Origin: Klebsiella phage KpLz-2_45
Sequence record: MN871446.1
DNA length: 64,000 nt
Reading direction: 5' to 3' (one strand)
The notes below the pieces were generated by a model. That model saw only the letters and a program-made list of their open reading frames with translations. It had not been told where the DNA came from and searched no databases. Numbering within the stretch: position 1 is the stretch's first letter; each line of letters starts with the position of its first letter. The position numbers and the translations under genes are program-made. Positions 1-63,073 of this stretch are shown piece by piece.

Positions 1-1167
1 AGCGAGGTTGATTTCGTTATTGATAACAATACGTTCCCAATAATACCCGGTACCGGAAGCAATTGAACCACCGTCATCAACTCCCGCGGCGAGATGACCG
101 ATAAAATAACCTGCTCCAGAAACACTTCCGGAGTAATAACCTTTCAGGTAGATCTTTTCTCCCTCAAAGGCAGGTTTACGTGACCGTAATGCATCAAAAG
201 ATTCTACGCCGTAAAATCCCTGTGCGACTTGATCAAGGTTGATACCATAACTAGTGTTAATTTTGGTCGCACCAGTGCTGAGCGCTAACGTTGCCAACAC
301 TTCCGCCGGCGTACCCGATACACTGACGGTAATCTCCGCACGGGAGCCGCCCAGAATGACTTCGACAATGTCATTCGTACTGAGTGCCTTCGCCAGCGAA
401 ATAGTAGTGCTGTTCAATACCTCAAAGTGTTTGTTCAAGATCTGGCGGCTACCGTTAATGTAGATAGCAGTGACGGTCTTAAACGACCACGGCGGCGTTA
501 ATGTCGTTTCACCGCCTACTGCTGCACCGTCGTTATACAACCAGGAAACATTAACATAATCAGTGATACCCGGTTCTACAGGTGTAACAGGCGTACCCGG
601 ATAAGGGCGCGTGTATAATACAACAGTTGCACCTGCTGTCAATGGTCCTGCTAGTTTGACTTTGTTGGTTTCATTATCAAAAGTATAGTTGGTCCCTTTA
701 ATCTGATGACTTCCGTTAAGGAACATTTCACCTATATCGAAACAATCAAAAGGGATCCCAATCTCAGTTTCACCGCCGACAGCAGAACCGTTATTGTACA
801 CGTAAGAGACGTAAGAAGTATACGCACCAAACTGACCACCGCCAATCAATTTCCCGGTACCGTAAATGACCGCTGTACCGTTTTTGTATAAAGCGGTAGC
901 AGAAGCTCCATTGACGTTAACGAAGGCTGCTACGTAGTGCCGAGTGTCGTCTGTGAAGACGTAGAAAATCTCGTCTTTAACGGTATTGGAAATACCGTTT
1001 GCGATGGACGAGTAAGCGTTTTCAAATAAAAGATTAGCACGGATGTCATTAAGAGAAACGCGATAAGTTTCGTTCGTTTGCCCCGCTAATGCGACGGGTA
1101 AAACTGCAGATTCAGGGACTTTCCCTGTACTGACTAATTCAGAAATCTTTTTGCTGTAATTGCTCAT
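1..1167 (-). CDS. Tailspike/tail fibre protein, truncated at the window edge. N-terminal anchor domain and a shared linker module, followed by duplicated ~60-aa GGET repeats
   Basis: Manual reverse translation from the ATG at 1167 gives MSNYSKKISELVSTGKVPESAVLPVALAGQTNETYRVSLNDIRANLLFENAYSSIANGISNTVKDEIFYVFTDD. This is the same N-terminal KISEL...LLFENAY...FYVF domain seen in the four complete tailspikes downstream. Further along, the VESFDALRSRKP...SGTGYYWERIV module matches those at 5449..7493 and 7805..9763. The gene runs off the window start and is absent from the ORF track because no stop lies inside the window. Confidence 0.6.
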   Translation of the reverse strand, partial: MSNYSKKISELVSTGKVPESAVLPVALAGQTNETYRVSLNDIRANLLFENAYSSIANGISNTVKDEIFYVFTDDTRHYVAAFVNVNGASATALYKNGTAVIYGTGKLIGGGQFGAYTSYVSYVYNNGSAVGGETEIGIPFDCFDIGEMFLNGSHQIKGTNYTFDNETNKVKLAGPLTAGATVVLYTRPYPGTPVTPVEPGITDYVNVSWLYNDGAAVGGETTLTPPWSFKTVTAIYINGSRQILNKHFEVLNSTTISLAKALSTNDIVEVILGGSRAEITVSVSGTPAEVLATLALSTGATKINTSYGINLDQVAQGFYGVESFDALRSRKPAFEGEKIYLKGYYSGSVSGAGYFIGHLAAGVDDGGSIASGTGYYWERIVINNEINLA

Positions 1168-1205
1168 TGCAAGAAACCTCGTCTTAGGCAATGGGGAGGA
1201 AAATA

Positions 1206-1220
1206 GTCATAGGAAAACAA
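1206..1220 (-). promoter_or_regulatory. Conserved box TTGTTTTCCTATGAC (minus strand) 41 nt upstream of the ATG at 1167, immediately 3' of the terminator hairpin
   Basis: Variant of the repeated TTGTTTCGTATGAC motif; contains TATG; candidate phage late promoter. Confidence 0.35.
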
Positions 1221-1222
1221 AT

Positions 1223-1248
1223 AGAGAGGAGCCAAAAGGCTCCTCTCT
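1223..1248. terminator. Rho-independent terminator hairpin agagaggagcc-aaaa-ggctcctctct
   Basis: 11-bp perfect stem with a 4-nt loop; T-run on the minus strand after it. Follows the stop of the 1275..2999 gene. Confidence 0.7.
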
Positions 1249-1274
1249 ATAGTTTAAGATCTAGGATGTTATCA

Positions 1275-2999
1275 TTAATTTTGTTCGTACCACTTACCAT
1301 TAAAATAGTTAAACGTAACAATTTCATTTAAAGTAAGAGTGCGAGATGCGGATCCTTTCAAAACAATGGTGCTGTTATTGGCTAACGTAACGTTAGTATT
1401 CGCTGCATGGACCTTGATCTCTTGGGTATTGACGCCCCCAGTAAAGTTAGTTATTGTAGTAGCGGAACTCATGTTAAGGTACAAATAAGAAATACCATCA
1501 ACGGCTAAAGTGGTGCCCGATGTAAAAACCATGGATTTTTTAGACATGTTAAAAGGGCTGCCTAAATAATCATTGTTCTTATATTTTTGAGTACCTACTG
1601 CGGCTTGTACGTTTGGGGCGACCCAGTTATTCCATTGACTGTTAGATGAAGTTGTATCGTTAATCCCGTATCTTGGTGTAGTGCCATCTTGAGAATAAAC
1701 GCCAGCACCGACAAAAGTATTCAAAACACCGGAGACCGAGAAGCCATCATGGGTGTTAGCTGCGGCGGAACCGATACCAATTGCAGTAGGGTTACTGAAA
1801 GTGTTCGTTGAGCCAGTAACAACGAAACCATCACCCATACATCTATCTGCACGCGCCCCTGAAAAACGAGACCGCGTGCCATCGACGTAAATCCCGATTT
1901 CACCAAACTCACCGATAGTATCAGTGATGAAATGATTACTACCGCCGATCCTGAGAGCAACTGCCAATTTATTACCAGCTATAGTACTAAAACCACTTTG
2001 TCCATTAGCTTCGATTCTGAATAAGAAATGATCTGTCCCTAATATATCAACTGCCCCTTTCAATGTAGTGAAATTAGCTCTGTCATACATTGTGTTTAAA
2101 ACAATGATGTCCTGGATTACACAAGCTATAGAGCTAGAGAGGAGGCGTATACCTTGATTCTTTGTACTGTTAACGCCTACATGACTAATTACACAATTGC
2201 CTGAGGCTACTTCTATTCCACAGTCCAAATTAGCCGAACCAATAATAGTTATATTTCTGATGGCTGAGCTATAACCATTAACTACAATACCGCGACCAGA
2301 ATGTGTACACTTAATCGCAGAAGGATCATTCTGTGAATAATTACGCATTCCGTTGATACCAGAAAGATGGTGTCCAGAAGGAATTATAATTTCTTTGCCA
2401 GAGATCCATAACCCTTCGGAAATTTCACAATGGGTCGCGTCAGAAAGAACTTCATTGATCAAGTCACCAAAATCATCGGTGCTAACTCTTAACTTAATAT
2501 CATTGTACTTATTTTTTGTAACTGCGCGAGCTAGTTCAAATTTAGAACCATTACGCATGTCCGATAAAGTAGGTAAATAAAGTCCACCTACGTAATCCGC
2601 AAAACGTAAACTATCAACATCGGATGATAAGGTGGTCGGTAATGTTGCAATTGAACGCACTTGTCTACTTGTTGGTAATCTGACTTGTTCATTGTCATAA
2701 CCCAGAATAGGATTAGCCACACCACTATTATTTTGGTATTGCAACACCCACAATTTCGCCGCGCTTTCATAGACGAAAAATACGTCCCCTGACGCGGTTC
2801 CGTTCAGGCCCGCATCCACAGACAGGAAAGCGTTCTCGAAACCCAGCGTTTGACGAAGGTCGTTAATTTTGGTGGATTTAGTGAAAGGAACCCCTGCACT
2901 GGTTTTGGCGTTAATCGGGACGACGTCATTCTCTTTGATGACGCCTGCGTCACCGAGTTCAGAAATTTTGATTCCGATAGAATCTGAAGTCTTAGGCAT
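1275..2999 (-). CDS. Tailspike with a right-handed beta-helix (pectate-lyase-like) C-terminal domain
   Basis: 574 aa. N-terminal IKISELGD...LRQTLGFENAFLS...FFVYE anchor motif. Downstream repeats such as IVVNGYSSAIRNITIIGSANLDCGIEV...NCVISHVGV are typical beta-helix glycanase/depolymerase repeats. Confidence 0.8.
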   Translation of the reverse strand: MPKTSDSIGIKISELGDAGVIKENDVVPINAKTSAGVPFTKSTKINDLRQTLGFENAFLSVDAGLNGTASGDVFFVYESAAKLWVLQYQNNSGVANPILGYDNEQVRLPTSRQVRSIATLPTTLSSDVDSLRFADYVGGLYLPTLSDMRNGSKFELARAVTKNKYNDIKLRVSTDDFGDLINEVLSDATHCEISEGLWISGKEIIIPSGHHLSGINGMRNYSQNDPSAIKCTHSGRGIVVNGYSSAIRNITIIGSANLDCGIEVASGNCVISHVGVNSTKNQGIRLLSSSIACVIQDIIVLNTMYDRANFTTLKGAVDILGTDHFLFRIEANGQSGFSTIAGNKLAVALRIGGSNHFITDTIGEFGEIGIYVDGTRSRFSGARADRCMGDGFVVTGSTNTFSNPTAIGIGSAAANTHDGFSVSGVLNTFVGAGVYSQDGTTPRYGINDTTSSNSQWNNWVAPNVQAAVGTQKYKNNDYLGSPFNMSKKSMVFTSGTTLAVDGISYLYLNMSSATTITNFTGGVNTQEIKVHAANTNVTLANNSTIVLKGSASRTLTLNEIVTFNYFNGKWYEQN

Positions 3000-3023
3000 T
3001 ATACTACCCTCAAGTGAAAGAAT

Positions 3024-3037
3024 CTCATACGAAACAA
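3024..3037 (-). promoter_or_regulatory. Conserved box TTGTTTCGTATGAG (minus strand) 28 nt upstream of the ATG at 2999
   Basis: Near-identical to the boxes at 5407..5420 and 7767..7780; immediately follows the terminator at 3040..3065. Confidence 0.4.
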
Positions 3038-3039
3038 AA

Positions 3040-3065
3040 GAGAAGAGGGTCGTAGCCCTCTTCTC
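3040..3065. terminator. Terminator hairpin gagaagaggg-tcgtag-ccctcttctc with T-runs on both sides
   Basis: 10-bp perfect stem; TTTTTT 3' on the plus strand and CTTTTGTTT on the minus strand. Confidence 0.7.
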
Positions 3066-3074
3066 TTTTTTAGA

Positions 3075-5288
3075 TTACCAACTAGAAAGAGCAGCTCTTA
3101 CCCAAGTATTAGTTGCAATACAAACGTAGTAATAACTACTATCAGCCGCCCATTGTCCTACAGTACCGGGAGCTGTTGCATTAGCAGGTACTGCGACTTT
3201 AACGCCAACTGGATTCCCTGCCACGGTAACGGCTCTTGAAAAATAACCATCCCGCCACTGAAGAGCACTTGTCCCAAAATCATAAAGGTTCGTCGCATTA
3301 GGGACTACTGTCCCCATGAAGTTGAACTGACTGGCGCCTCCGTTAGCAACAAAATTCATACCGGATAAATAACTGGTTAATGTCATCGGTCCGGTGTTAC
3401 CAAGTAAGATTCTACCCCCTAAAGTCGTGTTACCGTAAGGATAAAAATCCAGTCTCCTGTCTCCACTTGTAGTGTTATTATTTCCTATTTGGAGAATATT
3501 ACCACTGGAGATAGAGGCTGTTGTTTTAATAAGGTAACCGCTTATCGTCCCATCCTGAGCCACCGAAAGAATAGGTGTTGTCGGGTTGAAAGCACCATCT
3601 GTATTGGTGTAATAAATAGAAAGGGCGCTGTTATTATCGCTATCCACATCGATAATAAATTTTCTCGTCGCTACTTTGACGTCGTTAATGATCAGGCCGC
3701 TAGTAATTCTTCTCGTAAAGTTATTGATGGCGCAGTTTATCAGCTGATAAGCTCTTTTACCTTGTGTACTAGCGCTGACGTCAAAGATAGGGGCTACTGT
3801 AGAGTTACCGGAAACTTCAGAGAATGCGCTGGAGAAATAACAGCTATCGAAAACACGCCCGGTATTAGTACTTGTACCAAATCTAATCATTGGTACGTGG
3901 ACAGCGCTGTCATAACCAACTGCGGACTTCCTTAAAGTTTGGAAAGTACATCCAGTGAATTTAATAATCCCTTGGTTGATGAATCCTAATTCGTAAGTGC
4001 CCGCTGAATCTGTTCCGCCAGAACCATTATCGGTAAAAATTACTGTATCGAAATTAAACTGCGTACCGCCGCCCAAATTAAACCATTTTGCACCGTAGAA
4101 GTGAGTCTCAATATGACCGCCTTCAAATTTAATGTTGTGGTGCGTACTGGAGGTAGGAGTTGGGTCTACTTTAATAGCTACGTAGTTTTTAGTGTACGTC
4201 GTTTCAATGTGTGGCCTGATGAACACAATGTTGTTGGAGTTGTCCGTGGCCTGAGGTAAGAAATGAATCCCTGTCGCAGGATTGTTTGTATCATTATCAT
4301 CAACGGCAACAAACCCAGTCATGTAGATACAGTCGAAAACCGCATCGTAACACTGACCGAATGTTAAAGCTTTAGTGGGCGACATGAAGTTAAGGTTTGA
4401 AAATCTTCCACCAACAGCCATTGAGTTAGCGGTTACTTCACTTCCGAGTTTAATGTAATAAGCAAAAATGCCCGGTTCTTTAATAAACGTTAACCCGTCC
4501 ATTTCAAGGCGCCCGCCCGTGAAAGTAAAGAGAAAATCTTTATTCACGTTAGAAGAAATATAAGCACCTTTTCCTAGAATCCTAAACCTTGGTTTTCCAG
4601 TCTCATAGCTGATAGCGCTTAAGTCTTTAACTATTTTACTGTCGAGTCGATATTTACCTGGCGGGAAAAATAACCACCCCGAGGCATATCGTTGAGCGTT
4701 AGAGATATTGATTTCTTTTTGATAAATACATTTATCTATTGCTGCGCTAACTGCCGGAGACCAATCCCAAGTAGAGGGGTCATTAGGATTATCTTTTTTG
4801 GTGACTAGACTTGAAAACTCCCAAATATTGATAGGTAGGCTATTTAATGCTTTAGCCGCGCTCTCCGCGCTTAACTCGATCTCTTTACGTTGATAGCCAA
4901 CTTCATCAGCTCCATTATTAGACATAATTCCATCAACGTCACCACGTATTACTTTTATACCGTAACCGGTATAATTAATTTTAGCAGTACCGTCCGAGTT
5001 AAAAATCTGTTCTGCAACTCCGTTGCGGTTGACATATGCTTTAACTGTCGTTTTTTCTGCATCGACATAAACGTAGAAAATTTGATTAGGGACAGTACCC
5101 GCAAGACCCGCTACTGTCGTAGTGAATGCGTTTTCGAAATTTAGCAGGGAGCGTAAATCAGAAATCTCCATCGCTTTAGATTCGGTTATTCCCGCTTCAT
5201 TCTGAGCGATAAATACGACATCAGAATCATTTACCGGTTTCGATGGTCGATCCATTTCACTGAGTTTTACAAAGATCTCACTGGCCAT
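3075..5288 (-). CDS. Tailspike, pectate-lyase_3-like beta-helix protein
   Basis: 737 aa. N-terminal KLSEM...LRSLLNFENAFTT...IFYVYVD anchor. The segment ...AVSAAIDKC...FFPPGKYRL...GKGAYISSN... is typical of P22-like/pectate-lyase-3 tailspikes. Confidence 0.8.
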   Translation of the reverse strand: MASEIFVKLSEMDRPSKPVNDSDVVFIAQNEAGITESKAMEISDLRSLLNFENAFTTTVAGLAGTVPNQIFYVYVDAEKTTVKAYVNRNGVAEQIFNSDGTAKINYTGYGIKVIRGDVDGIMSNNGADEVGYQRKEIELSAESAAKALNSLPINIWEFSSLVTKKDNPNDPSTWDWSPAVSAAIDKCIYQKEINISNAQRYASGWLFFPPGKYRLDSKIVKDLSAISYETGKPRFRILGKGAYISSNVNKDFLFTFTGGRLEMDGLTFIKEPGIFAYYIKLGSEVTANSMAVGGRFSNLNFMSPTKALTFGQCYDAVFDCIYMTGFVAVDDNDTNNPATGIHFLPQATDNSNNIVFIRPHIETTYTKNYVAIKVDPTPTSSTHHNIKFEGGHIETHFYGAKWFNLGGGTQFNFDTVIFTDNGSGGTDSAGTYELGFINQGIIKFTGCTFQTLRKSAVGYDSAVHVPMIRFGTSTNTGRVFDSCYFSSAFSEVSGNSTVAPIFDVSASTQGKRAYQLINCAINNFTRRITSGLIINDVKVATRKFIIDVDSDNNSALSIYYTNTDGAFNPTTPILSVAQDGTISGYLIKTTASISSGNILQIGNNNTTSGDRRLDFYPYGNTTLGGRILLGNTGPMTLTSYLSGMNFVANGGASQFNFMGTVVPNATNLYDFGTSALQWRDGYFSRAVTVAGNPVGVKVAVPANATAPGTVGQWAADSSYYYVCIATNTWVRAALSSW

Positions 5289-5319
5289 AATTGTACCTTA
5301 CTTTGTCTCTAATAGTCAA

Positions 5320-5334
5320 TTGTACATACGATTG
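5320..5334 (-). promoter_or_regulatory. Degenerate box CAATCGTATGTACAA (minus strand) about 35 nt upstream of the ATG at 5288
   Basis: TCGTATG core shared with the conserved late box; sits in the divergent region between two tailspike genes. Confidence 0.25.
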
Positions 5335-5406
5335 ACAGCTTGAAAGAATACGTTTCGGTTTATTATACATTAACTAGAGAAGGATGCGGAAAAGCTCCTC
5401 TCTTTT

Positions 5407-5420
5407 TTGTTTCGTATGAC
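5407..5420 (+). promoter_or_regulatory. Conserved box TTGTTTCGTATGAC, 31 nt upstream of the ATG at 5449
   Basis: Exact 14-mer repeated at 7767..7780; an imperfect hairpin-like GAGAAGG...CTCCTCTC element precedes it. Confidence 0.45.
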
Positions 5421-5448
5421 CATTTTTATTTACGTTGGAGTTGTGAAA

Positions 5449-7493
5449 TGACCGATATCACTGCATTGAAAATCTCTGAACTATCGCCCAGTTCTAATCC
5501 GTCAGAGAATGCGTTTCTTCCGCTCTCAGAAGCGAACGGAATCGCTTCTGAAAAAGTCAGTATTGGTACCCTCAGAGAAACGTTAGGTTTTGAGAACGCG
5601 TACAGCACGATTGCTGGCGCGCTCAATGTAACTACGGAAGGGAATGTTTTCTTTGTTTACGAAGACAGTACGCGAGACTATGTTTTGGGGTATGTAAACC
5701 AAGGGAACGGAACCTATTCTGCATTAATGTCAGACAGTACGACACAAGTTCGCTACGCGACGAATGCGCATATTGTCAACTCTTTATTCATGTTACAAGG
5801 AGTAGAAAGTTTCGATGCGTTACGTACCCTCAAACCGTGGTACGAAGGACAACGTGTCACGTTGAAGAGTTACTACAAAGACGGGGTTACGGGTGCTGGT
5901 ATCTTCATTGCGCGTTTAGGAGTAAATGCAGATGACAACGGCACGATTGCCGCGGGGAACGGATTCTACTGGCAACGGATTATTTCTGATAAGTTGTCTT
6001 TTGAGGACTTTGGTGCAGTCGGGGGCGGCGTACTGGACGATACTAGTAATATTCAAAAAGCGGTCAACTACTGTGCCAAAAATGGCATTGCACTAACGTG
6101 TTTAGGGAAAGTATACGCGGTCAGTACCGTAAATTTCCCAACCGATTTAGTGATCGATATGCGTAATGCAGTACTTTTGTCGCTGCCCTCTGTTACGACG
6201 GGTTATACCTTAACAATCAGCGGCTATTTGTCACCTGCGGCTAATCCAGGGAAATTTGATAATATTCGCGTTCAGCGTACCTTAATTAATACTCATCAAC
6301 CCGACACTAACAGTGTCGTAGACGGCGTGTCATTTGGTGTCGATGCGCACAATATTTCCTTCTACAATCTTAAGGTCTCTGGGTTTAGGGACGGGGTTTG
6401 TTTTAACGGGAAGAGTGCTTACCTCATTCGTTTATACAGCCCAATCATCGGACAATGTTGGCGCCGAGGGATGGCCTTTTATGCGAATACTGATTCTAAT
6501 GAGAACGTGACTATTTACGGTGGCGTGATTGCAGATTGTTGTAATTTTACTTTCGACGGTACCGGGCTCTACTTATCAGGGAGTGCCTCGAGTATCGATG
6601 TCAGGTTCTTTGGAACCAGTTTTGATTATTGCGACATCTCAGTTGATATTTATCAGTCTAACGTCGAGCTCCACGGTTGTCACTTGGAAAACAATAACAA
6701 CAACCCTCATATTCGACTTTCGTACACCTCAACCAAAAACCAACCCTATCTGATCATGAAAGGGGGAACAATGGGCGGCGGACCGAACGCGAACTCGTGG
6801 AGCGGTATTCCGATAGAAAATAGTACGGGTCGCCCTTACCTCGTCTTCATTACTAACACTGGCGGTGCCCACGTAGATATTGATGGAACTGACACCAGTA
6901 AATACATGACAGGAGTCAGGAGAACTACCGAGATCGTAGGTGTAGAAGGGGATAACTACCAGTTGATCGGGACCTTAAGGGTGAGGAACAAAATGACCTC
7001 TGGAAACATGGATAACGCCAGCCGCCCCATGCGACCTTGTAGTGCTCTTAACGTGATTCTGATCAACCAGTATCAAACTGCCGCATGGACACCGAGTTAC
7101 ACTAACGCAGACCTAACTTATACGATTGATACTACGAATTACTCTAACCCTAATTCACCGCACTCACGAAAAATTACACAAGGAAGCGTACGTAACGTCT
7201 CTTACTGGCAGGACGTGACACTGCGCGGCGGAGATATCTTCCACGCGGAGGCCGAAATCAAAATTACTTCGTTGACGGCTGGTTACGTCGCACTTCGAGT
7301 GGATTTTTACGACTCTGCCGGGAACGTAATACAATCGTCAATCAAATCTGTATCTGCGGTGACGACCGATTGGAATAACGTGTGGGTCTGGTTACGTGCG
7401 CCAAACGGTACAGTCAAGGCAAAAGTTCAAGAGTACTTAAACGGCTTTGTTGGAACAGCATATTTCACCAATGAACACGTTTGGATTTCTTAA
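5449..7493 (+). CDS. Tailspike with a beta-helix C-terminal domain and a C-terminal carbohydrate-binding-like domain
   Basis: The ORF track starts at 5340, but GGAG-N9-ATG at 5449 gives MTDITALKISEL...LRETLGFENAY...FFVYED, matching the shared anchor. The VESFDALRTLKPWYEGQRV...AAGNGFYWQRII linker module is also present. Beta-helix repeats follow (HNISFYNLKVSGFRDGVCFNG...). Confidence 0.8.
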
Positions 7494-7506
7494 GAAGGAA
7501 CTCACT

Positions 7507-7728
7507 ATGTTTCAAGTAGGCGACACCGTTCGCATCCTTTCTTGTCAAACTCGAGAAGACTTAGTTGGGAAAGAAACGACCATCAGTGCACTGGACGCTA
7601 AACTGAAAGATTTGGCTTGGGCAGATATCTACGGAATGGATCAATATATTTCGGTGGTCATCGATACCGATGCACGGTTTATTGCGGCTCAATTGGAACT
7701 CGTAGCCAGTGACATTGAAGGCTCTTAA
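7507..7728 (+). CDS. Small 73-aa protein between two tailspike genes (hypothetical; possible fibre assembly/chaperone)
   Basis: The ORF track starts at 7447 inside the upstream gene. AAGGAA-N8-ATG at 7507 gives MFQVGDTVRIL.... Ends 6 nt before the terminator. Confidence 0.4.
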   Translation: MFQVGDTVRILSCQTREDLVGKETTISALDAKLKDLAWADIYGMDQYISVVIDTDARFIAAQLELVASDIEGS

Positions 7729-7734
7729 GTTATA

Positions 7735-7766
7735 GGCAATGAGGGGACCTAAGTCCCCTCATTGCC
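7735..7766 (+). terminator. Terminator hairpin ggcaatgaggggac-ctaa-gtcccctcattgcc
   Basis: 14-bp perfect stem followed by TTGTTT. Confidence 0.75.
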
Positions 7767-7780
7767 TTGTTTCGTATGAC
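7767..7780 (+). promoter_or_regulatory. Conserved box TTGTTTCGTATGAC, 27 nt upstream of the ATG at 7805
   Basis: Identical 14-mer to 5407..5420; directly abuts the terminator stem. Confidence 0.45.
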
Positions 7781-7804
7781 AATCCTCTTTCAGGAATAAA
7801 AAAC

Positions 7805-9763
7805 ATGTCTAATGAAACACAGAAAATTAGCGAGTTGCTCAATACGTCCATCATTTCAGAGAACACTATTCTTCCCGTAGTTGCTGCTGAAGGTGAGACC
7901 AATTCCATCGATATTATCACTTTACGCTCGGCGTTGTTATTTGATAAAGCGTTTGAGACTAACGCAGCGGGTAATGCAGCGACTAGTAAAAACGATTCTT
8001 ATTTTGTTTATACCGATGCCACCAAAACAGCCGTATTGGGCTGGATGAACCAAGGCGGGGATTCTTACTCGCCTCTCCTCGATATTAATGGTGCACAAAT
8101 CCGTTTTATTGCAGGTCAAACTATTCGAGGTCTGGATTATTTCACAAATGGAGTTAACTCGTTTGCGGATCTGAGAACACTGACTCCGTTGTATTCCGGG
8201 CAACGCATTAAATTAAAGGCTTGGACAGCGGGAGAAAAGACAGGCGGCGGTGAATTTATTGCTGTCTTCGGAACTGCGACTGACGATGCGGGCACTATCG
8301 CGGCCGGAAACGGCTTTTATTGGGAAAGAGTGATCAATGGTGGGCTAAATCCAGAGATGTTTGGTGCTATCGGAAACGGTGTAGTTGACGACAGTAATAG
8401 TTTATCTAAATTTCTACTGGCTTTAGCAAATAGAGCCAAATATTTAACCCCAATAACATTTGTTCCGGCCATAGGTTATCTCAACGGTATCTATAGAATA
8501 ACAAAGACTATTACTGTAGATGGCGGTAAAGTAAGATTAACTACCAACACTGTTGGTTGCATCTTTTGTGACCCTACAGGGACTTACGAAAGTACCGGAT
8601 GTATTAAAGTAACCAATAATTACCTTAACTCTGCTTTTGTTGGACAGTACGCAGCACTATTTGAAAATATTTCTTTCGTCAGTACAGGAAGAACACTCAC
8701 CGCAATTTACGCTGTGAGGGGAGATGCTGTGAGCGGTAATAACGGTGCGTGTCTTCATAATGTTTTTAAATGTTCGTTTAAAGGCTTCAGTAAAATTTTT
8801 ACACATGGACCTGGCGGTTGGGGTTGGAACTGGGCAGGTTGTCAATTTTCTGATAGTACCAATTTGATGGTAATTGAGGATCAAGACGACACTTATGAAA
8901 GGCATAGTTTTGATGGATGTATTTTCCAAAACGGAGGGGTTGCATTTACAATAAATAACCCCGATGGGAAAGTCTATTGGAAAAATGGTTCTATGGACTA
9001 CTGCACCGGCGCAGCTACAATTACCGCCGGTTTCATAGAACTTAATGGTCATTTCGAGTGGACAGCCAGAACCGTAGATTTCATTACACTTTTATCAAGT
9101 AATGCGGCTGCTTCTATCTCGGGTGCAATGTTTATTCGTAACAATACTTCTGGTTCTACCTATTACGTCATTAATCAATACCAAGATAAGCAAGTAAAAG
9201 TAGATAATTTGGTCGTTATATCTGACGGTAATTACATTGCCAATGGAGTACTCTCAAATAGAGAGTTGTTAAAGGGAACAATTTTTGCGCAGAACGACGC
9301 GTCTAAATCTGTGCTCTATCACTCCTCTGATGAAAATCTGATATCGGGAACTACGTCTTACCCTCAAGTAACTTTAACTAACACCACTCAGTTTTCTTAT
9401 TCGGTGGCTGATGGTTCTTTGACGATTAGTTGTTCTGCGGGCGGACAAAGTGGTTTTCTTTACTTAGATGTCCCGGTAAATAATAAAAAATTCTACGCTT
9501 ATAAAATGACGGCGAGTAATACGTCTAATGGTTCTGTGTTCCTAGAAAAAACCGTATTGAATGCAAATAAAGATACGATAAGAACCGATACCAGTTCAGG
9601 TACTACCAGCTGGGCAGCAGGCTCTAGTTCGGTGGCAGGAGGTACTGTGACTCTTTTATCTTTACCTGCGGCGGCGGCTTTTATACGAATTAGATTTAAT
9701 CTCTCAAGTATGACAACAGGAAGTACGTTTACTATCAGTTCATTGAAAACTTTCACTTTTTAA
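7805..9763 (+). CDS. Tailspike with beta-helix domain
   Basis: The ORF track starts at 7739, but the ATG at 7805 gives MSNETQKISELLN...LRSALLFDKAFE...YFVYTD anchor. The shared VNSFADLRTLTPLYSGQRI...AAGNGFYWERVI module and beta-helix repeats follow. Confidence 0.8.
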   Translation: MSNETQKISELLNTSIISENTILPVVAAEGETNSIDIITLRSALLFDKAFETNAAGNAATSKNDSYFVYTDATKTAVLGWMNQGGDSYSPLLDINGAQIRFIAGQTIRGLDYFTNGVNSFADLRTLTPLYSGQRIKLKAWTAGEKTGGGEFIAVFGTATDDAGTIAAGNGFYWERVINGGLNPEMFGAIGNGVVDDSNSLSKFLLALANRAKYLTPITFVPAIGYLNGIYRITKTITVDGGKVRLTTNTVGCIFCDPTGTYESTGCIKVTNNYLNSAFVGQYAALFENISFVSTGRTLTAIYAVRGDAVSGNNGACLHNVFKCSFKGFSKIFTHGPGGWGWNWAGCQFSDSTNLMVIEDQDDTYERHSFDGCIFQNGGVAFTINNPDGKVYWKNGSMDYCTGAATITAGFIELNGHFEWTARTVDFITLLSSNAAASISGAMFIRNNTSGSTYYVINQYQDKQVKVDNLVVISDGNYIANGVLSNRELLKGTIFAQNDASKSVLYHSSDENLISGTTSYPQVTLTNTTQFSYSVADGSLTISCSAGGQSGFLYLDVPVNNKKFYAYKMTASNTSNGSVFLEKTVLNANKDTIRTDTSSGTTSWAAGSSSVAGGTVTLLSLPAAAAFIRIRFNLSSMTTGSTFTISSLKTFTF

Positions 9764-9770
9764 CAGACAT

Positions 9771-9798
9771 AGACAGAGGAGCAGAAGCTCCTCTGTCT
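9771..9798. terminator. Bidirectional terminator agacagaggagc-agaa-gctcctctgtct between convergent genes
   Basis: 12-bp perfect stem; TATTTTCTTT 3' on the plus strand. Confidence 0.75.
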
Positions 9799-9806
9799 TA
9801 TTTTCT

Positions 9807-10373
9807 TTATTCGTCGGTTTGTTCAACCAAAATGAATTTGCTGTCTTCGGTGTTAATCGCTTTACCGGATTCGGTAAGCAGAGAACCACGAGGAATCTTA
9901 CTACCGCCACTACACGTGACGTCAAGGTTACCTGACCAAACGTGACTATTATAAGTCGTACCAGCTTTGGTCTGGATAGTCACAACCGCGGTTTCTCCGG
10001 ACGGAATGAACGGCAGGTAATCGTCCGCATTCGCAATATCTTCAACGTCAATATAGAGACTGTATTTTGCTTTGATCAACGGTAAAAGATCAGCGATTGT
10101 CGATGCTGTTTCCGGCAGGACTAAAGTAGGGCCAACCGACGCCATCAGTTTGTTCAGTTCGATACGGGTGTAAGTAAAGGTCTTACTCCCGGTTACCGGA
10201 GAACGACCTGTAACGAGCACGGAGACACGATCTTCTGTACCCGGTACCGTAGAACCAGTGATGTTACCAAAGCTCAGGTAGCTGGCGTTGAGCGGCGTAG
10301 TGAGGTTATTCTGCTGACTGATCAGATCAGCGAGAATCTCGTATTTGGGACGACCGAATAAATCGACGTACAT
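9807..10373 (-). CDS. Hypothetical protein (188 aa)
   Basis: Complete ORF convergent with the tailspike gene; no recognisable motif. Confidence 0.5.
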   Translation of the reverse strand: MYVDLFGRPKYEILADLISQQNNLTTPLNASYLSFGNITGSTVPGTEDRVSVLVTGRSPVTGSKTFTYTRIELNKLMASVGPTLVLPETASTIADLLPLIKAKYSLYIDVEDIANADDYLPFIPSGETAVVTIQTKAGTTYNSHVWSGNLDVTCSGGSKIPRGSLLTESGKAINTEDSKFILVEQTDE

Positions 10374-10422
10374 TGTGTATACTCCATCTTAATTTTGTAA
10401 GCTTACACAGTAATGCGTGCTA

Positions 10423-10809
10423 TCACCAAATCGGCTCGCCACGATCAATAAACTGAATTCTTTCTTTTCTACAGAGTTTTTCTAAGATATCTTTTAAGAG
10501 GTGACGATGACAGAAGCAGTCGTGTTTACAATAGCAGGCTAAACAAATTCGTTCCTGATTAATCAACCACAGCCACGGTTCCGGATTTTTGATAAACCGT
10601 TCACGGGTCAACCGGTAATAGATATCAACGTATTCCGCTTCACTGACAATGCCTTGCTTAAATGGCCAGAGTAATTCTGGAGTGGGTGCAAAGTCTTTTA
10701 TTCCGCTTTTTAAGGTGGTATCGACAAAGACAATATCCAGTCCTTCCCAAACTCGCCAATCTGGTATTCTGCCTGTCCATACTTCGAGTTGCTTGAATGA
10801 ACGAAACAT
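10423..10809 (-). CDS. DUF488-like protein
   Basis: GGAGGAGAG-ATG at 10809 gives MFRSFKQLEVW.... The C-terminal ...LACYCKHDCFCHRHLLKDILEKL resembles the LlCaEk..CHR tail typical of DUF488 proteins. The longer track ORF (to 10881) lacks an RBS. Confidence 0.45.
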   Translation of the reverse strand: MFRSFKQLEVWTGRIPDWRVWEGLDIVFVDTTLKSGIKDFAPTPELLWPFKQGIVSEAEYVDIYYRLTRERFIKNPEPWLWLINQERICLACYCKHDCFCHRHLLKDILEKLCRKERIQFIDRGEPIW

Positions 10810-10873
10810 CTCTCCTCCGTTCAATGAAACCAAAAAAAACAATGAGACGATTAACCTGCTTAGGTCAAAAGAC

Positions 10874-11395
10874 CTAAGCATAGAAGTTTAACCATTCCAG
10901 AAAACGCCGGCTGCGTTTTTCGATATTCCCCTCAACTGGGTATCTTGATGCGTAATCTTCGTTGAGGGTCAGCGGATAAAACTCCGGGTCTCTCTCGGTG
11001 GCGTACATTAAATGGAGTACGTAATGCCGAGTCCCGTAAACGTCCAGGAAGGTCCAGAGTACATAACGTTGAAATGCGTGCTTAAACGTATCCAGTCTCA
11101 GCTTTTTGAACAGTCGATAAAATTCCGTGATATCGATTTTAAGCGCTTCGAGACTGGTGACCTGCACCGGGACACCGAGTTGAAGCGATAACCGGAATCC
11201 CCGGCAACGATATTCCCTCGCATTCATTCCCAGATATTCAATGATCAGTTTAGACCCGATGCGTTTATACGTTATATCCGTGGTCGCACGTGTCGTTTCA
11301 CCTACACGTCTACCGAAGGTGGTGGTGTCAATTCGATATTTTGCCAGGTCTTCTACGGCTTTCAGAAAGGACAATTTACTGACTTTGAGGCGCAT
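10874..11395 (-). CDS. Hypothetical protein (173 aa)
   Basis: ORF with an upstream terminator and a T-rich leader; no motif recognised. Confidence 0.5.
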   Translation of the reverse strand: MRLKVSKLSFLKAVEDLAKYRIDTTTFGRRVGETTRATTDITYKRIGSKLIIEYLGMNAREYRCRGFRLSLQLGVPVQVTSLEALKIDITEFYRLFKKLRLDTFKHAFQRYVLWTFLDVYGTRHYVLHLMYATERDPEFYPLTLNEDYASRYPVEGNIEKRSRRFLEWLNFYA

Positions 11396-13074: not shown

Positions 13075-13145
13075 GTCTCACTCCTTTTAATGATTGAAAG
13101 GTAGATTTCTCTACCTTATTTCAATAGAGTGATATAGATGTTAAA

Positions 13146-13877
13146 TTAGTTTGAAATGGCACCGAGACATTCAAACAGATAGCCGGTCATGAATTCTGCC
13201 GAGGTAGGCTTCGTGTATTGGCCGGTGCTGTTATCGGAACGGATAATAGTTTGGTAGATGTTACCAAACGTCGTGGCGTTACTGTCGTCAAATAACACCT
13301 TAAACAGCCCCTGATGGATCGCAGCGTAAAGGTCAGTAGCTTTTACCGCTTCCGTTACAAAGTCGCTCACAAAGCTGTCTACTTCGTTATACTGATCAAC
13401 AAGTAACGGGTGAGCGTTCTTCAGGAGGAAGTAAAACTCTTTCGCCAACGACGTCAGTAATTCACTCCGTTTGTCTTCATTACTGAGGTAGATTTTATAC
13501 AGCTCATTACTGTAACCGGTCACCCAATTGGTACCGACAGTACGCGCTTCTTCGCGGAATTTCGTTTCCGGTTTCAGGTAATATCCGATCCCTTCGGTCA
13601 GGGAAAGGTAGGTCAGTGCATCTGGGTTATCGATCGGCGCATTCAGGTAAAGGACATTTCCTTCAACGCGATACGTTTCAACGCTCGGGTCGATGACGAT
13701 TTCCACGTTTTCGAGTTGATACTTTTCACCGATAGCATGGACGCCGTACACGAAGACTTGACCCGGGACAATCACTCCTTCGATAGTTTCCTTCACCGCC
13801 TGTGCTAAAGCAACTAGACGTTGGGTTTCACTGGCGTTGAGACCCTTGATGCCGTTGAGCAGACTAGATGGTTGCAT
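13146..13877 (-). CDS. Hypothetical protein (243 aa)
   Basis: ORF only. Confidence 0.5.
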   Translation of the reverse strand: MQPSSLLNGIKGLNASETQRLVALAQAVKETIEGVIVPGQVFVYGVHAIGEKYQLENVEIVIDPSVETYRVEGNVLYLNAPIDNPDALTYLSLTEGIGYYLKPETKFREEARTVGTNWVTGYSNELYKIYLSNEDKRSELLTSLAKEFYFLLKNAHPLLVDQYNEVDSFVSDFVTEAVKATDLYAAIHQGLFKVLFDDSNATTFGNIYQTIIRSDNSTGQYTKPTSAEFMTGYLFECLGAISN

Positions 13878-13949
13878 GGCTACACCTCAATAAGTTTTAC
13901 GTTTACATAGTAGGAACGGTAACTGTAAGGTTTGAAATGTTACAGCATA

Positions 13950-14181: not shown

Positions 14182-14859
14182 TTAGACAGTCGGGTTACTC
14201 TTGCTCGTTATCCACTGACTCGCAAGTGTTTTGAGTGATCCGCCGCGATCGACGAAGACACTCAAATTACTGTTGTCAGTGTAGACTACATTGCGGTCTT
14301 CGCTATTGACGGTAGCGGAGACAATGACATGGTTTCCTTTCACAAGTGCATTTTCGCTTATGATAGTACGAAGCGTGTAACCCACGATATCAATAAGATC
14401 AGACAACTGCTTATAGCGGTATTGTCCATCGTTGGTTGTGTCCTCTTCGTAGTCAGTACGTAAGGATTCGAATAAATAGTATCCTACCCACAGCGATGCC
14501 ACCGCGTAGATACTCGGGTTAAAAACGTTGTCGAGTCGGGGAAGGAGACTATAGTGGTACAAAGTCGTCACGCCGTAACCCAGATTTGCCAACATGTTAA
14601 GAACAAATCCATCCGGGAGGGCGTTGATCTTGGCGTCAATTCCTGGAAATTTAGTTCCCAGGTGACTGATAAGACGGGAGCGTACTTCCGTTTCTCGCAT
14701 ATTGATTGGCCAAGATAAAATAGGAACTTGCTTAAACGGTTTATTCTCGCCTGCAAAATCCGAAGCACTCGGCGTTCTTGTCCAAGGAGTTAATAACTCA
14801 ATCGACTGGATAATAGCAGGGAGCGTACTGTCGTCGTAAATTCCAACTGAAGTGGGCAT
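14182..14859 (-). CDS. Hypothetical protein (225 aa)
   Basis: ORF only. Upstream TAGTTTTATGATAA (14914..14927) is a weak variant of the conserved box. Confidence 0.5.
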   Translation of the reverse strand: MPTSVGIYDDSTLPAIIQSIELLTPWTRTPSASDFAGENKPFKQVPILSWPINMRETEVRSRLISHLGTKFPGIDAKINALPDGFVLNMLANLGYGVTTLYHYSLLPRLDNVFNPSIYAVASLWVGYYLFESLRTDYEEDTTNDGQYRYKQLSDLIDIVGYTLRTIISENALVKGNHVIVSATVNSEDRNVVYTDNSNLSVFVDRGGSLKTLASQWITSKSNPTV

Positions 14860-14941
14860 GATAAATCCTCTCTTCGTAATAAGTGTCTCTTAAATTAAAT
14901 CAGATTTTAAGTATTATCATAAAACTAAGAAAATAAAAGAA

Positions 14942-14961
14942 AGAGAGGCCAACGCCTCTCT
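14942..14961 (-). terminator. Terminator hairpin agagaggc-caac-gcctctct (near-identical copy of 11423..11442)
   Basis: 33 of 34 nt identical to 11411..11443. Confidence 0.65.
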
Positions 14962-14968
14962 TTTCTAT

Positions 14969-15719: not shown

Positions 15720-16445
15720 TCACCATCGTACAATATTAGAGAAACTCGACTCATACGAAAGCAGTCCCGCCTTGCGTTCCTTGGCAGCGTTGAATTCTGT
15801 CTTCGATAACGGGAACATCTCAACTTGGCTTTGGTCGAACGGCTCTTCTTTGTACCGTTCTAGCGCAGGGAGCACCATCTGATAATACCCGCGTTTCAAC
15901 GAAAAGAACGGCGAGAACTTTAAGGACGGACCCGTCACCTCAATGAGGATTCGGGTTTCAATACTTTTCTGGTAGTCATCTTTGATCAAACGAAGTTCGT
16001 CGATAAAACACTTCCCGACGACCCGCGCTGGGTAGGGTTGGTCTTCCTGATCGACATTCACTAACCAACGTTCTTCTGACCACTCTGCCATCGGGCAGAT
16101 AGATTTCCCTGGTCGCAAAGAACCCTCTACATCAATGGCGTAGATCGTATAGCCACCGAGCCATGTGTCATCACCCGCGCAGTGGGCTTTACTGTCGAGA
16201 AAGTCCCGTAACGCGACACCGTATCCTCGCAGACAATCCACCACAGTGATTCCGGTACAAACCCGTTTCACACTTTCATCTTCTCCCGCCATCGTCCGTT
16301 GAATTTCACGCGGAACGAAAACGTCGATCTTTGGATTAGGCGAGATATGATAAAGGACGCGGTGGTGCGTATCGACCTGTAAGGCGTTGATGGCGTGCTC
16401 TTGCTGTTTACGGACGAAAGCAGTTAACCGTTCAAATGGTGACAT
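15720..16445 (-). CDS. Hypothetical protein (241 aa)
   Basis: ORF only. Confidence 0.5.
   Translation of the reverse strand: MSPFERLTAFVRKQQEHAINALQVDTHHRVLYHISPNPKIDVFVPREIQRTMAGEDESVKRVCTGITVVDCLRGYGVALRDFLDSKAHCAGDDTWLGGYTIYAIDVEGSLRPGKSICPMAEWSEERWLVNVDQEDQPYPARVVGKCFIDELRLIKDDYQKSIETRILIEVTGPSLKFSPFFSLKRGYYQMVLPALERYKEEPFDQSQVEMFPLSKTEFNAAKERKAGLLSYESSFSNIVRW
15750..15762 (-). promoter_or_regulatory. Conserved box GCTTTCGTATGAG (minus strand) about 36 nt upstream of the ATG at 15716
   Basis: TTTCGTATGAG core identical to the tailspike boxes. Lies in the 3' end of the 15720..16445 ORF. Confidence 0.35.
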
Positions 16446-18983: not shown

Positions 18984-21900
18984 TTACTGTTCATTATCGT
19001 AGGCTTTCAGCATCTCCTGCTGAATGTTTTCAATAAGAACGTTACCCATCCCAAGGAGTAATGCGGAGTTTACGATACGTGCGTTGATCGCGCGATACGA
19101 GAACTGAAGGTCGATGTCCCACGGTTCTCCGCCAGGCAGTACAGGGTTACGTGTACGGCAAATACCGTTATACACACCACTTACCACCGACTTCTTCTGG
19201 TTACCCACCACCAGTTTATCGCCGTCCCCCATACCACGCTGATGCGTGATATAAATACGAATCGCCATCATATCAATCTCTAACGGCAAACCGTCGATCC
19301 GGCTCGGCGTGAAGACCTGTCCGGTCGGACTCGTTTCTTGCTTGAGTACCTTGACGTTTTTCGCACGAATCGCGTCGTATTTATCCGCCACCTTACGAAC
19401 CGAATCCGACATGTCCTCTTTCTCACCGAAATAGAACACCTCAATCTTCTCAACCGTTCCTACGTGTTTTGCACGAGGGGCTGGGTTACCGAGTCGCGCT
19501 AAGGTTTCCATAGAACTGGCATCAAAGTAATCAAAGTTCGCTGAGATTTCGTCTTCGATAAACGCGAGGGTGTCGTCGATGTCAACGTGTTGTCCTTCGC
19601 TCACCAAATTACGGATTGCCTGATTAAAGTTCACCATCAGGACACGGGTATGCGTCACCAACGTCGCCATCTTCTTAGAGAGCCGTTCTGAAATCAGACT
19701 GGCGTCTTCGAAGGTGTTGTTGTTTTCCATCAACGCGATGTTTGTGGTGATCCCGTTCTTGAACGCGACCTGACCTGGCTCACGCCAGTCTTTCGCAAAG
19801 AACCCCGGATGGTAAGCGATAATGGTATCCTTCTTCACGCTCGCACCGACTTCCAGATCACAACGCATCTCATGCGGGACGGTATGACCTGTCACGATAC
19901 CGAACTTACGTCCAATCTCGATACGGTCTTCACCGAGCGCGGGATCATCGTATTTCACGACAACGTAATTCTTTCCTTTCTCTGTTACCACGCCCTGACC
20001 TTTTGCGCTGGCAGCGAAAAGATCATCATTACGGTGGGCCATCATTAACTCGTAACCCGTGCGGATATAACCGAGGTCATCTCCTACACTGCTTATTTTG
20101 TGGCTACTCTGAATACCGATAAAGTTAACGCGCTTCGGGTCGTCATAAGTCGCAAAGGGTGATACCAATGCGCTAGTAGAAAGGATATTACTAAACCCTT
20201 TCTCTTTACTCAGGTCTTTCTCAGTCCGTGCTGTACCACGTAAACTGGTGAGGTTAGGGTTCGCTGACAGGAAGCAGTTAATCCCAACGTCGCCGTTATC
20301 CACCGAGGATTCAGAACGAATACCAATATCACTCGGATGGAACGCACGGGTACGTCTCGTCATGGAACGCTTACCGCGGCCGCCAGTACCGGAATAAGTC
20401 AGGTTCTCTTTCTCTTTCAGGTTTTGGATAGGGTTAGAATCTTCTACCAGAGAAACAGAGGGATCTTTCTGTATCGCGGACAATACCTCGAACGGTGGGA
20501 AATCCAAAGACGCCCTTGAACTGAGGTTACTGGAAGATTGTCTCCGGACGGCTTCTGAGAAGGTACGGTAGACCGCTCCTGCCATACGCTCGTAACCTTT
20601 GAATAACGAGCCCTCTGAACTCAGGTCACTCGGGTATTCATCGGTCGCCAAGTAAAAGGCGGCTTTCTTCAACAGCGGGATGAACGTGGTGGGTTCGTTC
20701 ATCATCTCCAGGTTCTCTTCTGCGATCGGGTCGATAAAGATTGCATTAAGGTTAGTGAACTCGTAGAGATAGCGTCCTGATAACTGCATGTCAGAAAGCA
20801 GTGCGTTGTAGTTGTCCCGATTGTCCAGTTCTGCAACAGAATAGTTTTTCAGGGCAGCCTTCCACAGAAGCAACGAAGCGTAGATCAAGACATCAGGGTG
20901 TGTCTTTCTTGGGATACGCCAGATCTCATCGGCAAAGACGATCTCGAAGGTATTCGGGTCGGGTTGTACACGCGCCCCTTTCGTTCTCCGTTCCGGCTGA
21001 ATCTCTAACCCTTCTACCATCTGACTGAATCCTTCCAGATAAGCCAATACAATGGCTAACGGGAACTCTTGTCCTAAGATAGAGATTGTCACCAATTCAT
21101 TCGGACGGTCATCTGGGTTAGCTCCAAGGAGTTTTGCGATATGCCCGAGGTTGTCAGCACCGGCGCGCAGGTAACCCTCTTTATCCATCGTGACCGTAGT
21201 TTTCCCGCGTTTTCCTACTGGGATATCCGTTGTTCCATTCCAATCCGGGAAATTTTTCTTGATGTTCTCGTAGTCGAAAATAAACTGTATGCCCACTGCC
21301 TCAAACGAGATGACCTCTTTGGCGATAGCCGAATAGGTTCTGGGCACCGGTTGGGAATCTTTGAACGAGTTACCGTAAACAATTTCCGTCATGATCGGCG
21401 GGTTAGTTAACGCCGCGCGGTTCATGGCATCTTTAAGCCACTCTCCGTAATCGTAACGACGTTTATCGCTGCGGTCGACAAACAGCTTGCCGTAATACGT
21501 GGACAGCGCTACGGTCGATGGAGAGATCTTACGGATGGGTTTATCAAAACGCAATTTGCGCATGAAGTATTTAATCCCACCGATTTTATATTTCCCATTT
21601 TTATCGATGACCGGTAACTGGAAACGAACCGTAGAAGGCGCGCCTTTAACCGGCGAGATTTTCACCGTGTAATCGTAAAGGTCATTTAACGCATCGACTT
21701 GGCGTTCCACTTTAAAGTCGGTAATGGCAAACCCGGCTTTCTGGAAATTAAGGATTAAATTGATCACGTCCTTTTGCATGACTTCTTTAACGTACTTTTG
21801 ATCGAAGTCGATCAAGGTACTTTTTAACATGCTTTTATCTTTGACGTGGGTAATATCCTCGATGACCTTCGGTTCAAAATTCCAGACGACTTCTTTCGGG

Positions 21901-36236: not shown

Positions 36237-36276
36237 CGGGAGCGCTCCAAAAAATAAAAGAGTGAAGGTGCATAAA

Positions 36277-57112: not shown

Positions 57113-57126
57113 GATGGATCAACATA
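57113..57126. promoter_or_regulatory. Perfect 14-nt palindrome CCATCGGCCGATGG in the divergent region between the fibre operon and the 57153 gene
   Basis: Seen directly in the sequence; it sits between two divergent start codons 54 nt apart. Confidence 0.3.
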
Positions 57127-57152
57127 CCAATACTCATCAAAAAGGACCGGAC

Positions 57153-63062: not shown

Positions 63063-63073
63063 TGTCATAAAAA
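63063..63073 (-). promoter_or_regulatory. Box TTTTTATGACA (minus strand) directly 3' of the terminator, about 60 nt upstream of the ATG at 63002
   Basis: Weaker variant of the conserved TTTCGTATGAC box. Confidence 0.25.

Follow-up and report, generated by a model that had tools for sequence, protein, structure and literature searches.

A TATG-containing box upstream of tail-fibre genes in Klebsiella phage KpLz-2_45: a candidate phiKZ-type late promoter

A 64,000-nucleotide (nt) stretch of Klebsiella phage KpLz-2_45 (sequence record MN871446.1), referred to here as the window, carries a TATG-containing box upstream of four tail-fibre genes. TTNNTATGW, an element found across the genome, takes this form at the tail-fibre genes. 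By analogy with phiKZ, the box is probably (we estimate a probability of about 0.7) a late promoter for the non-virion multisubunit RNA polymerase (RNAP) of the phage. A preliminary description of the window, made from the letters alone, had proposed the box as a late-promoter candidate. This proposal is now supported by positional enrichment, strand specificity, conservation, the class of the downstream genes, a purge of the core from coding DNA, and a homologue of the phiKZ protein gp123.

The source of the window is a Klebsiella jumbo phage of ~300 kb that belongs to the phiKp24 (Maaswegvirus) group; the phiKp24 genome is vB_KpM_FBKp24, hereafter FBKp24. Its counterpart in the relative KpSz_1 is 113434-176425. 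Window positions 18000-42000 were 99% identical to most Klebsiella jumbo relatives and ~77% identical to FBKp24 and Centimanus. Over the first 9 kb, the matches to KpSz_1, KpZh_1, KpYy_2_45, LPKP23, MJ359, FBKp24, and Centimanus were mosaic only. The phage had been described as having its own multisubunit RNAP genes, and three beta/beta'-like genes were identified in the window (18984-23471, 23487-25118, and 39458-40222) from the annotation of relatives and PHROG profiles. FBKp24 encodes a distant nuclear-shell homologue and a tubulin-like gene. Because of the RNAP beta-type genes, the shell homologue, and the tubulin-like gene, the lineage is phiKZ-like and probably nucleus-forming, with its own multisubunit polymerases. 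Whole-genome tests were performed on the complete genomes of KpSz_1, the nearest relative overall, and the divergent FBKp24, with genes called anew. The median identity of their orthologous proteins is 76%.

The tail-fibre box and its genome-wide core

The positions described earlier for the four boxes, and for related cores at 15750, 63063, 14914, and 5320, were all correct, and each site contains TATG (Table 1). Distances were measured from the G of TATG to the A of ATG. The boxes lie 27, 30, 27, and 42 nt upstream of their genes; a range of 27-41 nt was first reported. All four genes are paralogues with a KISEL-containing N-terminus and matches to tail-fibre/depolymerase PHROGs; the one starting at 1166 extends beyond the window edge. 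When the four upstream regions were aligned, the box was the sole block of invariant columns, and the hairpin, the 5' untranslated region (5'UTR), and the coding flanks had diverged. The box at 7767 is identical in KpSz_1 and reads TTGTTTCGTATGACC at FBKp24 gp101. The boxes at 5407 and 3024 are conserved islands in the comparison with FBKp24 gp104 and gp106, respectively. The variant at 1206 was also found 5' of the orthologous MSNYSKKISEL/MANNTRKISEL genes of five other genomes.

With up to two mismatches allowed, the 14-mer pattern matched three times in the window (0.6 expected), a number reached in 2 of 100 shuffles. The exact 14-mer repeat was rejected as significant by itself because recurring 14-mers are common in the window (72 distinct ones vs ~17 in shuffles); the significance of the box hence rests on its shared context. 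The exact 14-mer occurs in at least 120 IMG/VR contigs, with one match each among the matches listed, as chance predicts. The full 14-mer, first presented as the conserved unit, holds as such in the tail-fibre cassettes, to which it is specific. Genome-wide, it narrows to the functional core TT-N2-TATG-W.

The preliminary description had named the absence of enrichment upstream of genes as one result that would refute it; a ~4-fold enrichment was found in both genomes. TATG(A/T) with its G 22-48 nt 5' of start codons was counted 43 times in KpSz_1 (9.6 expected, p = 2e-15) and 41 times in FBKp24 (10.4 expected, p = 6e-13). Under a Markov-1 model of the same intergenic DNA, the counts were 38 vs 17 and 42 vs 19, respectively, an excess of ~2.2-fold (p = 1e-5 and 2e-6). 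TATG(C/G) was flat, with no upstream peak, and the same positional test on the opposite strand gave no TATG excess in KpSz_1 or FBKp24. Irrespective of the following base, TATG with its G at -50 to -21 occurred 61 times in KpSz_1 and 57 times in FBKp24 (22-28 expected), ranking second and fourth, respectively, among the 256 tetramers in that zone. An assumption-free search for k-mers enriched in intergenic DNA yielded TATGA, TATGAC, TCGTATG, and TTTTATGA. In the sequence logo, TATG is preceded by T at distances of 4 and 3 nt and followed by a weakly A-rich stretch. TTNNTATGW is present in 35 copies per ~300 kb genome, 20 of which (57%) are intergenic and 20-70 nt 5' of a same-strand start; the same is true of 7 of the 10 copies in the window. 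No peak was seen in a 50 kb phiKZ sample, whose 61 genes are too few for this test.

Conservation was assessed over 113 aligned upstream regions of KpSz_1 and FBKp24. TATG in the -60 to -20 zone was fully conserved in 26 of 35 cases, compared with 46% for all tetramers (p = 8e-4), and identity around upstream TATG was raised from about -10 to +8. The fibre boxes are identity islands in which TTTTGTTTCGTATGA is retained and the hairpin stems and leaders differ. Across the fibre arrays of seven genomes, the site is present for 47 of 60 genes; the 13 genes that lack it stand close behind another fibre gene and look like operon members. The 41 non-identical sites in these arrays consist of a T-rich run, C/T, G/C, and an invariant TATG, followed by A (38/41) and C (28/41).

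Homology breakpoints were located by local BLAST of window positions 1-11000 against six relatives. Homology to MJ359 ends at 3041, homology to KpSz_1 ends at 3042 and resumes at 5409, and homology to Centimanus begins at 7775; a fifth box-adjacent junction lies at 1250 (MJ359). Four of these five junctions separate the hairpin, which goes with the cassette upstream, from the box, which goes with the leader and anchor domain that follow it; box and hairpin remain together at 1250. This pattern fits a boundary between the end of one unit and the start of the next. Other breakpoints coincide with the boundaries of N-terminal domains (2658, three times; 5931/5977; 8367) or with the array end (9760/9778). 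Breakpoints cluster where box and hairpin meet and where the N-terminal anchor gives way to the receptor-binding part of the fibre genes, which shows that depolymerase modules are exchanged cassette by cassette.

Counter-selection in coding DNA and the candidate polymerase

Expected counts in coding DNA were derived from synonymous-codon shuffles preserving each protein and its codon usage. TATG was the most depleted of the 256 tetramers in sense coding DNA of KpSz_1 (633 vs 1000 expected, ratio 0.63, z -17). It was depleted on the antisense strand as well (273 vs 432 expected, 0.63), and the FBKp24 ratios were 0.70 (sense) and 0.66 (antisense). The sense-strand ratio deepened toward the consensus, from 0.63 for TATG to 0.59 for TATGW, 0.31 for TNNTATGW, and 0.12 for TTNNTATGW, a depletion of ~10-fold; TATG without the upstream T gave 0.79. 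Controls of the same composition were mostly at expectation (TTNNTATCW, TTNNGTATW, and TTNNATTGW), with the exception of TTNNTGTAW, which was depleted on the sense strand (10 vs 31). Among other jumbo phages, the ratio was 1.0 in a 50 kb sample of the host-polymerase-dependent Klebsiella phage RaK2, 0.70/0.61 in SPN3US, and 0.87/0.86 in the 50 kb phiKZ sample.

Two other causes of the depletion were considered and rejected. Avoidance of the restriction site CATATG does not account for it because TATG outside CATATG is equally depleted. A general TpA or codon-junction bias was dismissed because the matched controls were at expectation and RaK2 was undepleted. An element concentrated 5' of genes and purged elsewhere is the pattern that should be expected of a promoter core. 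TATG/CATA ranks as the most depleted coding tetramer in the phiKp24 group, and its depletion may be a genomic signature of TATG-reading polymerases; no report of TATG depletion was found in the literature on phiKp24, Maaswegvirus, and Chimalliviridae.

The FBKp24 sites lie 5' of the genes for terminase, tail sheath, a head structural protein, head protease, several virion proteins, and lytic transglycosylase, of the tubulin-like gene, and of the fibre genes. The major head gene has TATGA 65 nt upstream, outside the counted 22-48 nt window. Seventeen of the 41 sites precede genes with a structural, packaging, or lysis annotation, compared with 12% of all genes (p = 4e-7; p = 0.005 with the fibre array removed).

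In phiKZ, late transcription requires TATG, the G is +1, and the promoter contains little else (Yakunina 2015, PMC4666361), the last point having been made in the preliminary description. A 2026 structure shows the phiKZ beta-like subunit gp123 clamping the four non-template TATG bases (PMC12809450). Homologues of gp123, 29% identical, were found at 301967-303577 in FBKp24 (E = 7e-64) and at 103585-105201 in KpSz_1 (E = 1e-61). Of the 14 residues that contact TATG, 6 are identical and 3 conservatively replaced, including Phe151, His331, and the aromatics at 185 and 406; those retained include the residues stacking on G+1 and on T-3/A-2.

If the box is such a late promoter, the beta-like subunit of the non-virion polymerase would bind TATG on the non-template strand, as in phiKZ. 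Transcription would start at the G of TATG and give leaders of 27-42 nt with a ribosome-binding site, and the genes would be expressed late. In this phage group, the element has the general form TT-N2-TATG-(A/T) and, in the tail-fibre cassettes, an extended form made of a T-rich run, (C/T)(G/C), and TATGAC. Its T-rich half abuts the strong hairpin that ends the preceding unit wherever the upstream gene is co-oriented; for this reason, each fibre gene or short fibre operon would be an insulated terminator-promoter cassette.

Table 1. Boxes, hairpins, and related TATG sites in the window (distances from the G of TATG)
Feature	Sequence	Position	Strand	TATG; predicted +1	Context
Box	TTGTTTCGTATGAC	7767..7780	+	7775-7778; G7778	27 nt 5' of ATG of tail-fibre gene 7805-9763
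Box	TTGTTTCGTATGAC	5407..5420	+	5415-5418; G5418	30 nt 5' of ATG of tail-fibre gene 5448-7493
Box	TTGTTTCGTATGAG	3024..3037	-	3026-3029; G3026	27 nt 5' of ATG of tail-fibre gene 1275-2999
Variant box	TTGTTTTCCTATGAC	1206..1220	-	1208-1211; G1208	42 nt 5' of ATG 1166
Hairpin		7734..7767	+		15 bp, 9 GC pairs, -31 kcal/mol, z -7.5; terminator-like end of unit 5448-7728
Hairpin		3036..3069	-		14 bp, -23.4 kcal/mol, z -6.2; terminator-like end of gene 3075-5288
Hairpin		1221..1250	-		13 bp, -26.3 kcal/mol, z -7.4; terminator-like end of gene 1275-2999
Weak imperfect hairpin		5377..5404	+		-11.6 kcal/mol, z -1.2; 23/200 shuffles fold as well
Variant site	..AATCGTATGTAC..	5320..5334	-	5325-5328	37 nt 5' of ATG of tail protein gene 3075-5288; without hairpin
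Related core	TTTCGTATGAG	15750..15762	-	G 15752	Within 3' end of gene 15720-16445; 37 nt before annotated start 15715 of head maturation protease
Related core	TTTTTATGACA	63063..63073	-	G 63066	After hairpin 63076-63102 (-23.1 kcal/mol); 64 nt before virion structural gene 62085-63002
Related core	TTTTATGATAA	14914..14927	-	G 14918	18 nt past hairpin 14940-14963; 59 nt before gene 14182-14859
Related site	TTGGTATGT	57122..57130	-		36 nt 5' of virion structural gene 54856-57087
TATG(T), weaker candidate	CTACTATGTAAA	13906..13909	-		29 nt before gene 13146-13877; CTAATATGTAAA in FBKp24
TATG(T), weaker candidate	CTTCTATGTAA	37641..37644	-		40 nt before gene 37086-37601; sequence conserved in FBKp24
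TATG(T), weaker candidate	AATTTTATGTTAA	42291..42294	+		41 nt before gene 42335-43207; sequence conserved in FBKp24

Hairpins and competing explanations

The box had been described as directly following a terminator in all four copies. This stands for three, in which a strong hairpin (7734-7767, 3036-3069, and 1221-1250) combines a GC-rich stem, a T-rich tract, and a co-oriented gene on the 5' side, as in an intrinsic terminator. It does not stand for the fourth: the hairpin at 5377-5404 is weak and lies in a divergent intergenic region with no co-oriented gene 5' of it to terminate. At divergent sites, KpSz_1 and MJ359 carry boxes back to back and lack any hairpin, so the box is independent of the hairpin. 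Likewise, the terminator-promoter cassette proposed earlier agrees with the arrangement at three fibre sites, but TATG is also enriched after hairpins that no gene follows, and its link to hairpins is therefore more than a terminator succeeded by a promoter. The fibre array is closed by a perfect 12-bp bidirectional hairpin (9771-9798), which separates its last gene, 7805-9763(+), from the virion gene convergent with it, 9807-10373(-).

Several observations count against the late-promoter reading. In the 14 nt after terminator-like hairpins, TATG is the top tetramer in KpSz_1 (32 vs 9.3 expected, z 8) and the second-ranked in FBKp24 (24 vs 9.4 expected, z 5). It also follows hairpins at convergent gene ends (13/49 in KpSz_1 and 10/50 in FBKp24), where there is little sense in having a promoter, and the association of hairpin and TATG is therefore partly terminator-related. 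The depletion of the full consensus, 0.12 on the sense strand vs 0.44 on the antisense strand, is not predicted by pure promoter avoidance; a second role at the level of the transcript fits the stronger sense-strand depletion. Because the fibre genes, all four of them, are paralogous, the identity of the 14-mer could be due in part to common descent or to homogenisation by recombination. The homologue of gp123 was seen only in relatives, and outside the window. The gene starts behind the positional statistics are our own calls, and KpSz_1 and FBKp24 are kin genomes rather than independent replicates. No 5'-end or expression-timing data for the group were found in the literature on phiKp24, Maaswegvirus, and Chimalliviridae.

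The TATG after hairpins at convergent ends was compared with the stop codon of the opposite gene (TTA + TG) as a possible cause; this explains only 4 of 13 and 2 of 10 cases. Window counterparts of post-hairpin TATG for comparison are 13946-13949(-), 36271-36274(-), and 49337-49340(-).

The box might instead be the downstream half of a terminator for the phage polymerase, its T-run and UAUG acting as a release or pause site and not as a start. Such a role would account for the TATG after hairpins at convergent ends, which have no gene to start, and for the sense-biased depletion in coding DNA, and it has a parallel in the mapped phiKZ terminators, which, like those of 201phi2-1, consist of a hairpin followed by YTTATKYYGT (PMC10914365, PMC11512511). 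We regard it as unlikely. At convergent ends, TATG lies 0-6 nt past the stem and is usually followed by C or T, whereas the fibre boxes have it 8-10 nt past the stem and read TATGAC; TATGA 6-11 nt past the stem is confined to places with a co-oriented gene downstream. The box persists where the hairpin is weak or missing, and it is spaced from the start codon, not from the stem. The junctions at 3041, 3042, 5409, and 7775 part the box from the hairpin, although at 1250 the two stay together. Those same four junctions coincide with the box edge, and with the breakpoints at N-terminal-domain boundaries and the paralogy of the downstream genes they are what would be seen if the 14-mer had no regulatory role and were the edge of a recombining module, made of the 5'UTR and the N-terminal anchor, that is exchanged between fibre cassettes or homogenised across them. 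In the window, however, divergence is far greater in the neighbouring 5'UTRs and N-terminal codons than in the box. Neutral homology cannot explain the recurrence of the core before unrelated head, sheath, terminase, and protease genes, or its purge from coding DNA, and we consider this explanation very unlikely.

An equally small chance is given to the box acting as RNA within a longer transcript, as a site of RNase processing or as a leader element controlling translation, just downstream of a hairpin that gives protection. The stronger sense-strand depletion, the position fixed relative to the start codon, and the stable hairpin directly 5' at three of four sites agree with it. The antisense coding strand is depleted too (0.44-0.63), which a signal read only as RNA does not predict. 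A scan of the whole window at gathering thresholds matched no Rfam family; the box is thus not a known RNA element. The core is the experimentally proven phiKZ initiator, and the subunit that reads it is conserved. A host sigma70 promoter or a T4-type late promoter is scarcely credible. TATGAC loosely resembles a -10 hexamer, but it lacks the critical final T of the -10 element, and no -35 TTGACA/-10 TATAAT pair spaced 16-18 nt apart overlaps any of the four boxes, in line with the earlier remark that the box does not resemble sigma70 promoters. The T4-type sequence TATAAATA is absent at -10, where the boxes read CGTATGAC or CCTATGAC, and phages of this kind carry their own polymerases.

A broader idea, which remains tentative and which we think doubtful, is that in nucleus-forming jumbo phages the non-virion polymerase reads TATG in two ways, as late initiator and, after hairpins, as a pause or release element that helps termination. 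This would jointly explain the post-hairpin TATG at convergent ends, the sense-biased ~10-fold purge, and a depletion that tracks the polymerase type, being present in the phiKp24 group and SPN3US, weak in phiKZ, and absent from the host-polymerase-dependent jumbo phage. The fibre box would then be a fused terminator tail and promoter.

Relation to known systems and further sites

Like the late promoters of phiKZ, the sites described here have an invariant TATG, precede structural (late) genes, and lack a -35/-10 pair. This phage, like phiKZ, has split beta/beta' polymerases, and its lineage has a gp123 homologue that keeps most of the residues stacking in the TATG pocket. Unlike in phiKZ, there is extra context here, namely TT at -7/-6 from +1, A/T at +2, and often C at +3, and the coding purge is stronger (0.63-0.70 vs 0.87 in the 50 kb phiKZ sample). 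The start sites of phiKZ are mapped, whereas those given here are predicted from sequence. The terminators of phiKZ and 201phi2-1 resemble those found here in their GC-rich hairpin and T-rich tract, often with TATG, and in the many single-gene units between start and stop signals. They differ in hairpin sequence, and the fibre TATG at 8-10 nt past the stem is tied to the downstream gene. The late promoter of the AR9 non-virion RNAP (5'-AACA-N6-TW-3') is likewise short, near the start site, and read by a multisubunit polymerase of a jumbo phage. It differs in sequence, in being read on the template strand via the sigma-like gp226, and in its need for uracil DNA; no AACA was found at -11 to -8 of the boxes, where the bases 5' of TATG are T-rich (TTGTTTCG). 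The paralogue array, conserved anchor, swapped receptor-binding parts, and breakpoints at the domain junction are as in other Klebsiella fibre/depolymerase cassettes, such as those of the hyperbranched phiKp24 fibres (PMC9700779). Beyond these, each cassette here has its own conserved promoter-like box marking the upstream edge of the module.

A 2020 review stated that bioinformatics fails to predict the late promoters of such phages (PMC7598289); contrary to this, the motif was recoverable here by sequence analysis alone. This kind of promoter is known. Its presence in the genus, the extended consensus, its predictability from sequence, and the TATG purge were not described in the literature searched, in which no promoters were described for the phiKp24/Maaswegvirus group. 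The public FBKp24 record contains generic software promoter predictions only, none of which coincides with these sites. If the late-promoter reading is right, it would provide a sequence-level map of the late transcription units of a ~300 kb therapeutic-candidate Klebsiella phage. It would also mean that TATG recognition is conserved from the Pseudomonas phage phiKZ to a lineage whose gp123 homologue is 29% identical, and would define a portable cassette of terminator and promoter with which depolymerase genes could be engineered or swapped. The TATG purge could flag this promoter type in uncharacterised jumbo phages.

The related sites of Table 1 vary in how far they are conserved. The minus-strand TATG at 5325-5328, in the divergent region between two fibre genes, is flanked by an inverted repeat, GTCAAT (5315-5320)/ATTGAC (5331-5336). 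Both are kept in FBKp24 gp105 and in LPKP23/KpYy, and the repeat could be an operator or a hairpin overlapping a candidate promoter. The FBKp24 counterpart of the 15750 site is TCGTATGAG, 39 nt 5' of gp090; the site lies in coding DNA, so conservation there is confounded. The block CGCTTTTTATGACATTCGCCGTCCTG at the 63063 site is identical in FBKp24. At 14914, FBKp24 keeps TATG with the adjoining bases changed. The whole region around 57122 is conserved in FBKp24, so conservation is uninformative there. A further copy, TTGTTATGA at 51807-51815(+), is also kept in FBKp24 and may represent a long-leader promoter; it is located within gene 49373-51844(-), at its 5' end, and 102 nt 5' of the baseplate gene 51916-52905.

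A second promoter-like motif, CTATATCAC-N3-A(T/G)TGAA, occurs in the window at 13129-13137(-), 37694-37702(-), and 49327-49335(-). In KpSz_1, 23 of 24 copies of TATATCAC are on one strand, and matches to the second motif are mostly intergenic, many of them with a small hypothetical gene 42-110 nt downstream. This motif is similar to the early (virion RNAP) promoters, conserved and AT-rich, of other RNAP-encoding jumbo phages. The copy at 49327 is conserved in FBKp24, and the adjoining TATG is not.

A long repeat, CAATATATACATCAAAAAAACTGCATTTCGATT, ends 10-13 nt before TATG(A/T) and has no copy in the window. Copies lie upstream of 103-1356(-) and 278292-278831(-) in KpSz_1 and of 96728-97972(+), 118389-118928(+), and 139828-141288(+) in FBKp24, one of them before a head structural gene. 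The repeat may represent a distinct (middle?) promoter class or a factor-binding site. Beside the small RNAP beta-type gene of the window, the open reading frame 40020-40505(-) encodes a YspA/SLOG-family domain (Pfam PF10686, E = 2e-12).

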